A stretch of DNA of 64,000 nt from a virus. Lineage: Duplodnaviria; Heunggongvirae; Uroviricota; Caudoviricetes. The position numbers were made by a program, and so were the translations under genes. Where the stretch lies: positions 42,581 through 106,580 of the IMG/VR virus record IMGVR_UViG_3300012344_000014. The stretch is one strand, 5' to 3'. Shown here piece after piece: positions 1 through 64,000 of this stretch. Each line of letters starts with the position of its first letter. Position 1 is the first letter of the stretch. The notes beneath the pieces were generated by a model, which saw only the letters and a program-made list of their open reading frames with translations, had not been told where the DNA came from and made no database searches.

Positions 1-204
1 AGCCGGTTCAAGACGAAGATCGACAACGAGAAGCTGGCGTTTCTGGAGGGAGATGAAGAGATCGCCTATATCAGCAACAACAGAATGTATATCACAGAGG
101 CGAACGTGACGAACAAGCTCACGGTAGGCGCGAAGTCGCTGGGCGGCGTATGGGAATGGGAAGCCGTTACCGCGGGTATGGGACTTAAATATAAAAGGAC
201 GTAA
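1..204 (+). CDS. 3' end of a phage structural protein gene whose start lies upstream of the window
   Basis: Open frame from nt 1 to TAA at 202-204. An RBS (aggaag) and ATG at 219 follow. Confidence 0.4.
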   Translation, partial: SRFKTKIDNEKLAFLEGDEEIAYISNNRMYITEANVTNKLTVGAKSLGGVWEWEAVTAGMGLKYKRT

Positions 205-218
205 AGGAAGTGTAAGGC

Positions 219-1601
219 ATGAGCGTTGAGCAAGAAACCGAGGGTTGGATTAAGGTACAATACGACACCTTAAAACCGGGGGAAAAACAGACAATAACAT
301 TTGGCGGAAACATGAGGTGGCTATATAACCATCTGCGGTTTAATGTCGGCGGAAATGAGTACGACCGGATGTACACACACGACATGGAGGGTATTTTTAC
401 ATTCATCATCCCGGAGACGCTGACGGAATCCTGCTCGGTGCTGGTCACGCTCAGCATTATTGCACCGGACACAGAGCGTACGCTGGCGACGAAGCAAGTC
501 CGGTTCAATGTGGAAGTGCCGCCTAAGGAAGCAGTTACGATCCCCAGCGCTGTATTCGGCATACGGAACCTGAGCGGCGGCGCGGCGGAGCAATGGGAGC
601 TGCAGGACGGTGCGCTTTACTGCATCCGCAAGATGAGCGACGTTGTAGTTACGGCAACATTCAAGGCGGGGTATTACCACTTCGGCGACCTTGCGGTATC
701 GGTGGGGCGCTATTATAAATCCTTCTCGGTCAAATACACGTCCGACGGGGAGCTTGACTCGATACCGGCCTCGTATGATGCGGTGCCGGAAGCATCCCGC
801 AACAGCTGCGTGTATGGCAACAAAACCCAGTTGACCGTGCGCCATGTGTTCGAAAAGATTGACATCTTCGGCGACGAGGTGCGGTGCTACGCGTCGTCTA
901 CAGATTCGGCGAAACGGCGTGTAATAACGGAGGATGTAACGTTCGAAGTTGCCAGCTCCACAACGGGGGTCGATTTCCCAGGGCCATGGACGGGGAAGAC
1001 GCTGAAGGTGCTCGACTACAGTTCGCCCTCGATCTATGACATAAAAGCATACCGAAGCACAGAAGACGGGCTGCCAGACGACGAGAGTAATCACGTGAGC
1101 GCGAGCTGCAGCGTAAACATTTACTCGTTGGGTGAGAAGAACGCGCTGGAGCCGGCGGTAAGCGGCGGGAAAGTGGTGGAAGTCGAATTCCGGACGGTTG
1201 GCGATGAGGCGTGGACGGCGCTGGGCACGCAGGACGTGGATATTACGCAGACCTATGCGGTGGAATACCCAACAACAGAAGACCCTGTGGTGCATGAGGT
1301 GCGGGTTACAGTAAGCGATAAGCTCTCGACAATATCGAAGATCACAACACTTTCCTCGGGTGTATATCCGATTTTCTTCCCAGCCGGCGGGCGCGGGGTA
1401 TCTTTCGGGATGATTGGGAACGAGCAGGACGCGGTGCAGATTTCGGGGGACTGGAAGATGTATCATGGCGTCGGCACGACAAAGCGGGAACTGACGGACG
1501 CGTTCCTCCGAAGCGAAATCTGGACGGGGACGTCGGAGCCTTCTGACAGCTATGTACTGCCGAAAGGCTATCTGTACCTGCAGCTGGACACGGGGGAGTA
1601 A
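219..1601 (+). CDS. hypothetical tail/baseplate-associated structural protein (460 aa)
   Basis: Long ORF with RBS, first gene of a co-directional tail-fibre operon. No recognisable catalytic motif. Confidence 0.6.
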   Translation: MSVEQETEGWIKVQYDTLKPGEKQTITFGGNMRWLYNHLRFNVGGNEYDRMYTHDMEGIFTFIIPETLTESCSVLVTLSIIAPDTERTLATKQVRFNVEVPPKEAVTIPSAVFGIRNLSGGAAEQWELQDGALYCIRKMSDVVVTATFKAGYYHFGDLAVSVGRYYKSFSVKYTSDGELDSIPASYDAVPEASRNSCVYGNKTQLTVRHVFEKIDIFGDEVRCYASSTDSAKRRVITEDVTFEVASSTTGVDFPGPWTGKTLKVLDYSSPSIYDIKAYRSTEDGLPDDESNHVSASCSVNIYSLGEKNALEPAVSGGKVVEVEFRTVGDEAWTALGTQDVDITQTYAVEYPTTEDPVVHEVRVTVSDKLSTISKITTLSSGVYPIFFPAGGRGVSFGMIGNEQDAVQISGDWKMYHGVGTTKRELTDAFLRSEIWTGTSEPSDSYVLPKGYLYLQLDTGE

Positions 1602-1606
1602 ACGAG

Positions 1607-2620
1607 ATGGCGCTATATATTGGAAACGCGGACAACAAACCACAATATGTGGCGGGGCTGTTTTACGGCGACGCAAACAACAAACCTGTACGCGTAGTCG
1701 CGGGGTGGATTGGCGACGAAAACAACAAACCCCGGCTGTTCTATTCGCCAAACCTGGAATACACGGTAGACGCTTACGGCGCGGACTGGTGGGGCGGAGA
1801 ATTCTATATTAATATGCTGAACGTGAGCGGTGGCACAGGCCGATACAGATACAAGTTCACGCTGACAGTTGAAGGGAAAGACCCGCTTGTTTACGAATCA
1901 CCGGAGCCGACGCGGGCAACCTCATGCAGCCACACGTTTACGCTGCCGAATGCTGGCACCTATGCGACATGGGAAGCGACAGTTATGGACGCGGCTAACG
2001 CGCATTGTATGGGGAGCCAGAGCGGCCGGTTCGATGTGGTGCGGGTGCCGTTTGTTATGGGGTGTGAGGCGGCACAGATCAACCTTTATGCGAATGGCGT
2101 ATGGAAGGCAACAATTTACAGCAATGTTCTGAAAAACTACGACAGGAACAAAGCGAAAGCCAGCGTCAAAGAAGTAAACGACGACCTGACGGTAGAATGT
2201 TCGATCGATTATTATGACGAGAATTACGCCAGCCCGGAGGTATGGTTTACGGCTGAAAGTCCTGGTACATACAGGTTGGAGTATTTAACGCTTACGACCT
2301 CTAGAGGGGTAACCGCTACGGCTGGTTCTGGCGCGACCATCTCGGTGTACGTCAAATCAAAAACAGTTACCAATGTCGTCAACTTCTATGGTTCGTCTCC
2401 GCAACTTTACTTTAATGCGAACGAGGACACGCCGTCCATGGAATATGTAGACGCGGTATACGGTGTCACCAAGGTCAACAGCAAATGGTATTCTTTCAGC
2501 CATACGCTTGTCTATCAAAACGGTGACCTGTGGGACGGCAGTTATATTGGAACATTGTACTTCCTGGCTTCTGATTTCTACGGCGAGATCATACCCAGCA
2601 TGGACGTATATTACAGTTAA
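1607..2620 (+). CDS. hypothetical tail-associated protein with N-terminal NNKP repeats (337 aa)
   Basis: ORF tightly coupled to the upstream gene. Repeated '..NNKP..' motif; structural-module context. Confidence 0.6.
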   Translation: MALYIGNADNKPQYVAGLFYGDANNKPVRVVAGWIGDENNKPRLFYSPNLEYTVDAYGADWWGGEFYINMLNVSGGTGRYRYKFTLTVEGKDPLVYESPEPTRATSCSHTFTLPNAGTYATWEATVMDAANAHCMGSQSGRFDVVRVPFVMGCEAAQINLYANGVWKATIYSNVLKNYDRNKAKASVKEVNDDLTVECSIDYYDENYASPEVWFTAESPGTYRLEYLTLTTSRGVTATAGSGATISVYVKSKTVTNVVNFYGSSPQLYFNANEDTPSMEYVDAVYGVTKVNSKWYSFSHTLVYQNGDLWDGSYIGTLYFLASDFYGEIIPSMDVYYS

Positions 2621-2629
2621 GGAGGGTGA

Positions 2630-62421: not shown

Positions 62422-63501
62422 TTACGCCGAGTGGTTCAGCTGCTTCCATTTCTTCGCCGGCATGGACAGGACGTCATAGCCGATGCTTTCCAGCTCGGAG
62501 GCGCGGTCGTAGCTGGGCACATCCTGACTGAAGCGGGTGACGGCGTTGCTCAGGCCGTACAGGCTGAGATCGCCGCCATGAATGAGGTAGCTGAGGACGC
62601 TCTCGCTTTCCTTTTTGCCAATGGCATATTCCTTGGCGGTGAGCTCGACGAAGGCGGGGATGCTTTCGGCGGTGATCTTCGCATCGCGGGCTTCCTGCAT
62701 CATGGCGACCACCTTATCAAACTGCGTCTCATCCACAATAGCGCGCACGGTATCACGCACCTTCAGCATGAACGCGCGGTCGTCCGCCGTAATGGTTTCA
62801 TCCGCATAGAGCGCATAGTCTTCGCCCTGCTGGGCTTTGGCCCCAATATGACGGCGCTTCTGCGCCGCATCATTTACAACTATGCCGTTGGAACACACCA
62901 GCCGATAGACGAGCGGGGAGGCTTCGAAACTGCCGAGGCCGACCTCCGAATTGGTGATGCAGATACCGGACTGCACAACGTCGCCGGGGGTTACGTCCGC
63001 CTGAAGGCGCGGGTTGACGGCCTTGATATACAGCTTGCGGTCGGTGACCTCGCAGCTGGCGATTTGCACATCCTTGATTTCGCCGAGGATGGGGAGGACG
63101 ATGTTGGCGATTTCGTAGTTATCGATGCGGCGATAACGATCGGAGAGGAAGGCGCGGGCAGTGTTATCCAGCGTGCGCACCATGCGGCGGCGCTCCTTTG
63201 CGTTTTCGTCGCGTGCCCAGTTCCGCATCCAGTGGTTGACATTGGTGGCGAGCAGGCCGGGCGCATCGCTGAGCATCCGGCGATAATAGGGGAGCGGAAT
63301 GCCCATCTGCTGACCAATTTGCTGGTGGGCGACTTCGTTGACGTGAAAAGCGTAAGCGCTGTTATCGATGTTCAGGCGGACTTCATCGGTTACATCAAGC
63401 CCCATGGTGAGCTGCGCGGTATCGACAAGATAGTCGCGCTTAGCATTGTTCTGGCGTTCGATTTCCTGCGCGAGTTCCATCAGGGTGCGGCCGTACTTCA
63501 T
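62422..63501 (-). CDS. DUF932-family phage/ICE protein
   Basis: Length and pattern resemble the DUF932 family; no catalytic assignment. Confidence 0.5.
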   Translation of the reverse strand: MKYGRTLMELAQEIERQNNAKRDYLVDTAQLTMGLDVTDEVRLNIDNSAYAFHVNEVAHQQIGQQMGIPLPYYRRMLSDAPGLLATNVNHWMRNWARDENAKERRRMVRTLDNTARAFLSDRYRRIDNYEIANIVLPILGEIKDVQIASCEVTDRKLYIKAVNPRLQADVTPGDVVQSGICITNSEVGLGSFEASPLVYRLVCSNGIVVNDAAQKRRHIGAKAQQGEDYALYADETITADDRAFMLKVRDTVRAIVDETQFDKVVAMMQEARDAKITAESIPAFVELTAKEYAIGKKESESVLSYLIHGGDLSLYGLSNAVTRFSQDVPSYDRASELESIGYDVLSMPAKKWKQLNHSA

Positions 63502-63516
63502 ATTTATACGCTCCTT

Positions 63517-63720
63517 TTAGAATGAATATTCATATTCGACGTGCAGGATATCCTGCGGCTCGATTTCCAGATCGGGATCGTCAGTCAGTACCGCGTCCTG
63601 ATGTTCGAGCACTTCCTCCTTTGCTTTATCGGTTATGTCGTAGTCGTTCATGCCATCGTTTGCATCTTCGACATACACCCGGTAGAACCGGCGGATTTCA
63701 ACTGTGACTACGTGGGTCAT
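63517..63720 (-). CDS. hypothetical acidic protein (67 aa)
   Basis: ORF track; ATGA coupling. Confidence 0.4.
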   Translation of the reverse strand: MTHVVTVEIRRFYRVYVEDANDGMNDYDITDKAKEEVLEHQDAVLTDDPDLEIEPQDILHVEYEYSF

Positions 63721-63998
63721 TCCGCGAGCGCCTCCTCTTTTCCGTTCTTCCGTTCCGCGTCATAGGAGAGAACTAGCATCGCGCCGGCGGCCTTATCCTC
63801 TTCGGGCACGGCGGGGTCGCTCATGCGGCGGCGGATTTCGGCCTCGAGCGCTTCCTTGGCCGCGACTGCGGCGTTGACGAGCAGCTGGCCTTCCTCGTTA
63901 TCGGTGATTTCGCCGCGCTCGATCTTCTCGAACAGTTCGTGGTTCTGTTCCAGCTGCTTGATGAGTTCGTAGCACAGGTCGATGAAGTTTTCAGGCAT
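63717..63998 (-). CDS. hypothetical protein (93 aa)
   Basis: ORF track; start at the window edge. Confidence 0.4.
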   Translation of the reverse strand: MPENFIDLCYELIKQLEQNHELFEKIERGEITDNEEGQLLVNAAVAAKEALEAEIRRRMSDPAVPEEDKAAGAMLVLSYDAERKNGKEEALAE

Positions 63999-64000
63999 GG

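Follow-up and report, generated by a model that had tools for sequence, protein, structure and literature searches.

In a 64,000-nucleotide stretch of the virus record IMGVR_UViG_3300012344_000014 (positions 42,581 to 106,580; hereafter the window), TAG is a sense codon and never a terminator in the genes. Alignments with related phages make leucine, and not glutamine, the most likely reading of the codon in this phage. TAG clusters in small toxin, membrane and lysis genes, on which it probably acts as a conditional switch. On balance, we consider it probable that the phage uses a sparse amber-to-leucine code, in which TAG gates a few harmful or late-acting proteins via a suppressor tRNA. The window appears to belong to the ~112-kb genome of a temperate phage of gut Clostridia, by its gene content an SPbeta-like siphophage.

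All genes were called with our own gene caller, which combines a 3-periodic Markov model with a ribosome-binding-site (RBS) score and dynamic programming. With TAG as a sense codon, the curated set in the window consists of 91 genes and 19,642 codons, and 15 of these genes contain a total of 19 in-frame TAGs (0.97 per 1,000 codons). The 91 genes end in TGA (47) or TAA (44) and none ends in TAG, which would happen with a probability of ~1e-7 if TAG took a 16% share of stop triplets. Reading TAG as sense gives a total coding score of 4002 and a coding coverage of 0.921, compared with 3938 and 0.902 for the standard code, while a sense TGA lowers the score to 3130. The gain in score is small because TAG is rare, and a screen by composition alone, in which small genes with low scores went unnoticed, recovered just 6-8 TAG sites. 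Recoding of TGA or TAA was rejected; the gene model with TGA as sense is far worse. Under the standard code the genes would end in TAA (44), TGA (43) and TAG (7). Six of these TAG “stops” close the first halves of split genes, and the seventh is that of a serine recombinase, with a TGA five codons on. This last one is the sole candidate TAG terminator in the window.

The reading frames continue as coding sequence beyond TAG. With TAG translated as leucine, both HicA toxins, RuvC and PAPS_reduct give full-length Pfam matches, and the NrdH-like, RemA-like, PAPS-reductase and signal-peptide proteins have recognisable sequence on both sides of their single TAG. For evolutionary comparison we used metagenomic strain and relative loci (labelled L001 and so on), among which L016 has a mean protein identity of 72% to the window with synonymous divergence (dS) above 1. 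Between the window and L016, the ratio of nonsynonymous to synonymous substitution (dN/dS) downstream of the first TAG is ~0.10, equal to that upstream, and the TAG-bearing genes are thus not pseudogenes.

The amino acid was assigned from the residues that relatives carry opposite TAG. The family sample, drawn from JGI and ENA metagenomes, comprised 80 loci that surround the gene for the capsid protein (YonB); in these, 305 orthologue-supported TAG sites correspond to 195 independent columns. Among the 180 informative columns, the majority partner is leucine in 96, glutamine in 15, methionine in 10, and isoleucine, glutamate and lysine in 9 each. Family-wide, leucine has about 50% of the partner share at TAG and glutamine 8%. 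In loci with tRNA(CUA), a BLOSUM-based log-likelihood gave +52 and +49 nats for leucine, and -36 and -31 nats for glutamine. As a control of the pipeline, leucine codons were paired with leucine in 71-73% of cases and glutamine codons with glutamine in 56-62%.

The window lineage itself has leucine as the partner at 5.3 of 10 sites and glutamine at 0.5 of 10. The residues opposite its TAGs are mostly hydrophobic: isoleucine in the RemA orthologues of L017 and L018, leucine in RuvC (structure PDB 7w8d), and leucine or valine in HicA, where the position following a GT motif (GT*, the asterisk being TAG) is leucine in L017 and valine in PDB 4c26; a further TAG lies in the core of a signal peptide. 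In the reverse direction, TAGs of relatives fall at leucines of the window in RuvC (codon 46), the PD-(D/E)XK nuclease, the N-terminus of NrdH, a holin-like protein and a tail protein. At this NrdH leucine, both L017 and L018 have a stop; that of L018 was scored as TAG, and the L017 triplet was not read. Pyrrolysine was rejected on the leucine alignment and the tRNA structure, with no search made for pyl genes; the label “tRNA-Pyl” given by ARAGORN is the default name for the anticodon CTA and offers no support for it.

Relatives of the phage encode candidate suppressors. A tRNA(CUA) gene is found in 13 related loci at a syntenic position that opens the structural module on the strand of the structural genes, ~2.5 kb before the terminase and 8-9 kb before the 3′ end of the capsid gene. 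In bacterial tRNAs, A73 together with class II architecture denotes leucine or tyrosine identity; leucyl-tRNA synthetase (LeuRS) ignores the anticodon, and the glutamine, tryptophan, glutamate and serine identities need G73. All nine distinct tRNA(CUA) sequences read from the relatives have A73; a long variable arm (86-92 nt) is present in five, and each of the four drawn as structures has a 3-bp D-stem. The D-loop, of AAUUGGCA type, resembles that of tRNA-Leu, and in L032, L033 and L034 the tRNA(CUA) gene is flanked on one or both sides by tRNA-Leu genes. The Gln-type suppressors of the phage phAss-1, which we checked ourselves as a control, have G73 and a UGGGG 5′ end. From the synteny of the relatives, the tRNA(CUA) of this phage is predicted to lie in the ~17 kb of its genome outside the sequence examined.

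Two further features of the relatives concern these tRNAs and the use of the codon. The phage tRNA-Leu genes (caa, taa, aag, tag) are just 75-80 nt long, without the long variable arm usual in bacteria (L032:230-1318, L033:546-1612, L034:492-1032). TAG use among relatives ranges from 0 to 8 per 1,000 codons, and L025, L026, L039, L041, L049, L050, L070 and L088, as well as L043 and L048, have no TAG, either in-frame or as a stop, in 10-20 kb of structural genes. L043 and L048 still carry tRNA(CUA), and the TAG-free relatives look like a stage at which the codon is unassigned or just captured.

Within the window, TAG is unevenly distributed among gene classes. The tail and fibre genes (+ strand, 1-13.5 kb; 14 genes, 4,415 codons) contain 3 TAGs versus 2.6-4.3 expected, and the lysis cassette (+ strand, 13.5-15.8 kb; 5 genes, 737 codons) contains 2 versus 0.75 expected, neither of which is significant. 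The - strand block (65 genes, 13,797 codons) has 5 TAGs, one of them the terminal TAG of the serine recombinase, versus 14.7 expected (p = 3.5e-6). The + strand islands inside this block (7 genes, 693 codons), which hold the two HicA genes, an 85-residue membrane protein gene, two small open reading frames (ORFs) and two TAG-free genes, have 9 versus 0.9 expected (p ~1e-7), a density of 13 per 1,000 codons. The heterogeneity among classes, as a Leu-weighted multinomial value, was never reached in 200,000 simulations, and the 30% of codons that are co-oriented with the late operon carry 14 of the 19 TAGs (p = 1e-4). The unevenness stems from the excess in the islands and the shortage on the - strand. 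The tyrosine integrase (51844-52740) is free of TAG, and in the serine recombinase TAG is just terminal.

These class and strand tests bear out the non-random placement of TAG that a preliminary description of this DNA had claimed, and the count by gene class that it had proposed as a check shows a non-uniform density within the window. Its list of genes with TAG was correct and the concentration in small + strand toxin and membrane genes stands, but that in tail and lysis genes is not significant. The long genes it had listed as TAG-free are so (DnaE, NrdD, primase-helicase, ligase, SHMT, PARP, a 504-residue DUF2828/DUF7788 protein, and fibre proteins of 745, 629 and 460 residues), except for the serine recombinase, which has TAG as its standard-code stop. 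The absence of TAG from long ORFs does not survive as independent evidence. Thirteen of the 19 TAGs are in genes of fewer than 150 codons, and genes of at least 400 codons have 2 TAGs versus 6.8 expected (p = 0.03), which becomes 2 versus 3.7 (not significant) without the islands; the effect is lost after correction for gene class, and the choice of stop-free ORFs is partly circular.

TAG sites are also retained and positioned in a distinct way. Of nine window TAGs compared with L016, eight are TAG at the identical codon there too, while leucine codons are unchanged in 144 of 468 cases (31%; Fisher p = 6e-4, estimated as ~0.01 once it is allowed for that TAG has a single synonymous single-step neighbour). 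Such retention fits a regulatory role rather than drift. Family-wide, the median relative position of TAG in its gene is 0.25-0.28 (Kolmogorov-Smirnov p = 3e-10), whereas leucine codons are uniform; 40 TAG columns are in the first decile of the gene and 8 in the last. The five TAGs in late genes of the window are at codons 11, 15, 24, 29 and 35. Purines follow TAG in 76% of cases and T in 10%, compared with 65% and 15% after leucine codons; T follows 36% of true stops. The base before TAG is A in 43% family-wide versus 19% before leucine codons. Amber suppression by tRNAs of the supP/Su6 type is more efficient before a purine. The retention, the 5′ position and the purine context together fit selection for efficient suppression and for cheap failure, as either a conditional gate or a leaky codon needs.

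We then propose the following model for the role of TAG. A phage-encoded amber suppressor derived from tRNA-Leu would decode TAG as leucine. Without the suppressor, an ORF carrying TAG would yield a short N-terminal peptide alone, and TAG would therefore make full-length translation conditional. TAGs would be kept at mostly 5′-proximal sites of genes whose products are harmful if untimely, that is, the orphan HicAs, RuvC, lysis and membrane proteins and a few tail-fibre proteins, and would be purged from most - strand genes for replication, nucleotide metabolism and lysogeny. We infer that the phage itself carries the tRNA, that the tRNA is expressed late or upon induction, and that the TAGs serve as gates. 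At the orphan hicA genes, the TAGs may stand in for the HicB antitoxin; no HicB-like ORF lies beside either gene in a six-frame listing, which was not a dedicated HicB search. The preliminary description had likewise proposed that recoding gates late or toxic genes. In support of it, TAG is a sense codon, is uneven, and occurs in toxic or late-acting genes (two HicA mRNA interferases, RuvC resolvase, the signal-peptide protein and the holin-region protein), but structural genes are not enriched and the sequence examined contains no suppressor tRNA.

At the level of the family, we lean only slightly towards a broader picture, in which one whole family of SPbeta-like phages, from Clostridia of the gut and rumen, would read amber as leucine by means of CUA suppressors derived from tRNA-Leu (some with truncated arms), and the TAG locks of sparse users would be opened by their own tRNA or by that of a superinfecting relative.

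A number of observations weigh against the proposed code and its gating role. In 147 homologues of the PAPS reductase, the TAG column has K 37, E 22, D 13 and R 13 and no L, where leucine is expected, and the TAG of NrdH aligns to E or G. The evidence for leucine in the window lineage comes from few sites (~20, together with the family context). Opposite TAG, the leucine codon is CTG in 53% (baseline 29%) and TTG in 16%, where TTG would be expected as the single-step neighbour. In L054/L059, L064, L097 and L102, TAG is mainly opposite glutamine, with no tRNA seen in these loci; two amber reassignments may therefore coexist in one capsid family. As to the suppressor, a search of the window and ~31 kb of flanking sequence found no tRNA gene; the sequence searched (including L002, L004 and L011) took in 10 kb on either side of the window and, in a 90% relative (L011), the 10 kb ahead of the tape-measure gene. 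An Rfam search of the window and flanks gave no match either. Some relatives with in-frame TAG also have no tRNA in the syntenic 10 kb. The sequence similarity of tRNA(CUA) is 0.68 to tRNA-Leu versus 0.66 to tRNA-Arg and discriminates weakly, so we relied on A73, the 3-bp D-stem, the long arm and the codon alignments. Beyond the 3′ end of the window, L004:1408-1809 (58 and 73 residues) and L004:7635-8096 (a 116-residue gene) contain candidate true TAG stops between same-frame genes, and some TAG termination may thus occur in this genome after all. The avoidance of TAG stops extends to ~65 - strand genes, which thus also evolve as if TAG were readable; this argues against a strictly late suppressor. 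The tail and lysis classes, as given above, each fall short of significance alone.

It is improbable that this phage uses code 15, in which a tRNA-Gln-like suppressor would read TAG as glutamine with the gating otherwise unchanged. Glutamine, as in crAss-like, Garnet and Phassvirus phages, is the sole amino acid to which phages that deviate from the code of the host have been reported to reassign amber, a fibre paralogue has glutamine at the window site 8892, and L054, L064, L097 and L102 align TAG mainly to Q. Against these stand the glutamine partner share in the window lineage and in the family, the log-likelihoods of -31 and -36 nats, and the several TAGs within hydrophobic cores; A73, the 3-bp D-stem and the long arms of the relatives' tRNA(CUA) are also unlike the G73 and UGGGG of the phAss-1 suppressors. 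A serious rival, which we nevertheless hold to be unlikely, is tolerance without regulation, whereby a poorly decoded leucine codon accumulates by drift in accessory genes that are short and weakly expressed, and is removed from long or highly expressed ones. The many TAGs in genes below 150 codons, the TAGs at variable polar positions where any residue would serve, and the continuous range of TAG use among family members all suit it, and the 5′ bias and purine context are also expected from selection against costly truncation under leaky suppression. It does not account for the retention of 8 of 9 TAGs at saturated synonymous sites, for the RuvC TAG shared with L017 at 43% protein identity, or for a TAG at the same GT* position of both HicA paralogues.

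We consider it quite improbable that the + strand islands are cassettes imported from TAG-rich relatives, with their TAG load being the codon usage of the donor. The GC content falls to 46-49% around 16-20 kb, at the site of the first island, heavy users among the relatives reach 7-8 TAGs per 1,000 codons, and the hicA cassettes recur in L016 and L017. The density in the islands is, however, above that of the heaviest users, and an import would not explain why ruvC, remA, nrdH and tail genes carry TAGs; moreover, the islands are syntenic with kept TAGs in L016 and are therefore old residents. That the interrupted genes are nonsense-inactivated pseudogenes is very improbable. Toxin genes without antitoxins are often inactivated and standard-code callers split the TAG-bearing ORFs, but the interruptions are always TAG, never TAA or TGA, and no frameshifts are found; the low dN/dS past TAG, the full-length Pfam matches and the lack of any window gene ending in TAG also speak against decay. 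We thus retain the sparse amber-to-leucine code with TAG as a gate as the preferred explanation.

The same reassignment is known outside phages. NCBI codes 16 and 22 (mitochondria of chlorophyceans and of Scenedesmus obliquus) read TAG as leucine; unlike the case here, these are fixed, organellar codes, with no virus, no conditional decoding and no co-resident genome using the standard code. In the laboratory suppressors supP/Su6 of E. coli, a tRNA-Leu with the anticodon CUA inserts leucine at UAG. These are host mutants and are not borne by a phage; in the phage tRNAs of this family, the variable arm is often shortened. Mechanistically, a change of TAG to leucine is an easy one, as LeuRS does not recognise its tRNAs by the anticodon.

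Among recoded phages, the closest parallels are those of Borges et al. (10.1101/2021.08.26.457843; Nat Microbiol 2022), who proposed that recoding regulates lysis and the lytic-lysogenic switch, observed just TAG-to-Gln and TGA-to-Trp changes, found integrases without recoded stops, and already raised recoding as a sensor of the suppressor tRNAs of other phages. Their phages (Garnet and Topaz prophages, crAss-like phages) share with ours a sense TAG, a presumed standard-code host, a tRNA(CUA) in the lineage and a temperate lifestyle, as well as depletion of recoded codons in replication and lysogeny genes, their presence in lysis genes, and integrases free of internal recoded stops. They differ in that here the amino acid is apparently leucine and TAG is sparse (~1 per 1,000 codons); it shows no excess in structural genes and is most enriched in small, co-oriented genes for toxins and membrane proteins. 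The Phassvirus phAss-1 (OQ749652; PMC10607447) is also a large siphophage of gut Clostridia near Spbetavirus, with NrdD and ThyX, in-frame TAGs, and Sup-CTA tRNAs that adjoin a tRNA-Leu gene. It is distant, with 22-41% identity in six proteins, has 28% of its ORFs recoded, and carries the G73 and UGGGG suppressors described above, which are Gln-like; glutamine was inferred for it by Babkin et al. (PMC10607447). Peters et al. confirmed glutamine at TAG by proteomics in crAss-like phages. Published TAG-recoded phages encode a suppressor tRNA(CUA) in 35-52% of cases.

A full-text search of the literature, which did not cover subscription-only papers, found no report of TAG-to-Leu in phages, and the literature on recoded phages covered here contained none of a 5′ positional bias of TAG or of site-level retention. 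Thus, the non-random distribution of TAG is a new instance of a known pattern, and carrying it over to toxin and moron genes goes modestly beyond Borges et al.; what appears new is the reading as leucine, the bias towards 5′ ends and the retention at individual sites. The amber-to-leucine change may be the first non-glutamine reassignment of TAG in phages. If so, code change in phages would not be limited to the glutaminyl- and tryptophanyl-tRNA synthetases, which have been proposed as uniquely exploitable. Phage annotation tools assume table 15, and prodigal-gv, Pharokka-gv and geNomad offer only TAG-to-Gln, so that, if leucine is true, proteins of this family would be mistranslated or split in databases. 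The sparse use, with ~19 TAGs kept in place near gene starts and in toxins and a resolvase, would make a clean natural system of gates, each of which could be opened by a single TAG-to-CTG change. With relatives ranging from zero TAG to 8 per 1,000 codons, the path of codon capture becomes directly observable.

The TAG-bearing genes of the window are collected in Table 1.

Table 1 Genes of the window with an in-frame TAG. Lengths are in amino acids (aa); coordinates are those of the window.
Product	Position	Strand	TAG codon (position)	Remarks
Tail-fibre protein, 393 aa	2630..3811	+	29 (2714-2716)	
Tail protein, 403 aa	4548..5759	+	24 (4617-4619)	phrog_13589 match
Gly-rich fibre paralogue, 272 aa	8790..9608	+	35 (8892-8894)	
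Signal-peptide/membrane protein of the lysis cassette, 133 aa	13849..14250	+	11 (13879-13881)	
Holin-region protein, 104 aa	15174..15488	+	15 (15216-15218)	
Serine recombinase	15905..17527	-	536 (15920-15922)	TAG is the standard-code stop, then NVSL and TGA
Small ORF, 54 aa	19516..19680	+	23 (19582-19584)	Low confidence as a gene; own caller only
Orphan HicA toxin 1, 70 aa	19807..20019	+	17, 55 (19855-19857, 19969-19971)	
Orphan HicA toxin 2, 78 aa	21498..21734	+	45, 63, 77 (21630-21632, 21684-21686, 21726-21728)	
NrdH/glutaredoxin-like, 70 aa	26852..27064	-	23 (26996-26998)	
RuvC-like resolvase, 169 aa	27119..27628	-	59 (27452-27454)	Pfam RuvC 7-146/148
RemA-like, 125 aa	31067..31444	-	34 (31343-31345)	Pfam RemA-like on the downstream part
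Small membrane protein, 85 aa	38548..38805	+	33, 59 (38644-38646, 38722-38724)	
Small hydrophobic ORF, 52 aa	41964..42122	+	8 (41985-41987)	Low confidence as a gene; own caller only
PAPS-reductase-like, 286 aa	42202..43062	-	116 (42715-42717)	Pfam PAPS_reduct 3-173/175

Among the tail genes, the tail-fibre gene at 2630 starts with an ATG preceded by an RBS, immediately after the preceding stop; its tail-fibre match (phrog_5073, residues 10-68) spans the TAG, which is kept in strains L001-L003. In the gene at 4548, the frame is open for 110 codons past the TAG with a positive coding score and no start codon before 4950. The N-terminus of the gene at 8790 is coding, since the fibre paralogues at 7677-8765 and 12744-13505 (+) align with it across the TAG (TYT[Q/L]Y.ITGSGT). 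The three paralogues share the N-terminal motif G.TYT[Q / TAG / L]Y.ITGSGT, and glutamine, TAG and leucine are thus found in one column in one genome.

In the lysis region, the gene at 13849, which has no family match in Pfam or PHROG, is translated as MNKVFCILLT*VFMMTVCVGIAAA (the asterisk being TAG), with the TAG within the hydrophobic core. The holin-region gene at 15174 adjoins a SpoIID/SH3 lysin gene (14250-15158) and matches phrog_4105 over residues 9-102 (E = 2e-23), a match that spans the TAG, which is kept in L016. The serine recombinase has Pfam Resolvase and Recombinase matches and was called as 535 residues, and its TAG and the short tail are kept in L016.

In the islands, HicA 1 matches Pfam HicA_toxin (PF07927) over 1-58/58 (E = 1.3e-15 with TAG as leucine) and both its TAGs are kept in L016; HicA 2 matches over the same 1-58/58 (E = 1e-8). 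The 85-residue membrane protein has hydrophobic segments in translation and 73% identity to its L016 orthologue, in which both TAGs are kept. The ORF at 19516 has no family match but aligns weakly (34%) to L016 with TAG opposite TAG, and a promoter-like site is found at 19391-19419; the ORF at 41964 has no family match either. On the - strand, the NrdH-like protein has a CPMC motif upstream of the TAG and the fold continues downstream, its glutaredoxin-like (Glrx) match being below the Pfam cut-off, and the TAG is kept in L016. The RuvC TAG is at the identical codon in L016 and in L017.

A tail gene outside the window also has a TAG between two same-frame ORFs. In L011:8143-9795, just upstream of the tape-measure gene, ORFs of 121 and 397 residues in the same frame are joined by a single TAG, and the counterpart of the 397-residue ORF in L013 is PhageMin_Tail-like. 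Partial amber suppression at this TAG could yield short and long forms of the tail chaperone, replacing the usual G/GT frameshift.

The window (53% GC) corresponds to positions 10242-74241, reversed, of the 112,235-bp metagenomic contig logan SRR1747039_750, and strain variants with 97-99.7% identity are present in several gut assemblies. A near-identity DNA search against the deposited phage collection gave no close match to the window, and a search of IMG/VR returned almost no relatives. Among the GTDB genomes, titles of metagenome-assembled genomes with related capsid genes point to Clostridia as host, and no further suppressor was found there. Precomputed Pfam matches on the contigs include the SPbeta-like siphophage marks YonB, YomX, YomU, YomG-like, PhageMin_Tail and Resolvase. 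Tail/fibre and lysis genes form a + strand block at 1-15.8 kb, and the long - strand block encodes the serine recombinase, ClpP, PhoH, SHMT, NrdD, ThyX, dUTPase, DnaE with an intein, PARP and Macro proteins, ligase, PAPS reductase, PD-(D/E)XK nuclease, primase-helicase, the tyrosine integrase, AbiEii, and Bro-N/ANT proteins. The window thus has two recombinases, the serine recombinase (15920-17527) and the tyrosine integrase.

Two of the replication and nucleotide-metabolism genes vary in length among relatives. DnaE (32578-37089, - strand) has 1,503 residues with an intein (Pfam Intein_splicing), while in strain L009 and relative L016 an intein-less DnaE of 1,058 residues is at the same location. 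NrdD (24534-26855, - strand) has 773 residues, and its closest relatives have 620 residues or are intein-bearing forms of ~960; the extra segment of ~150 residues might be a mini-intein or an insert. The - strand block further includes cargo that looks like defence or counter-defence: a PARP/WGR protein adjoining a Macro-domain protein, AbiEii, a weak AcrIC5-like match and three Bro-N/ANT proteins (38881-40535, 54012-54941, 56497-56709 and 57907-62172).

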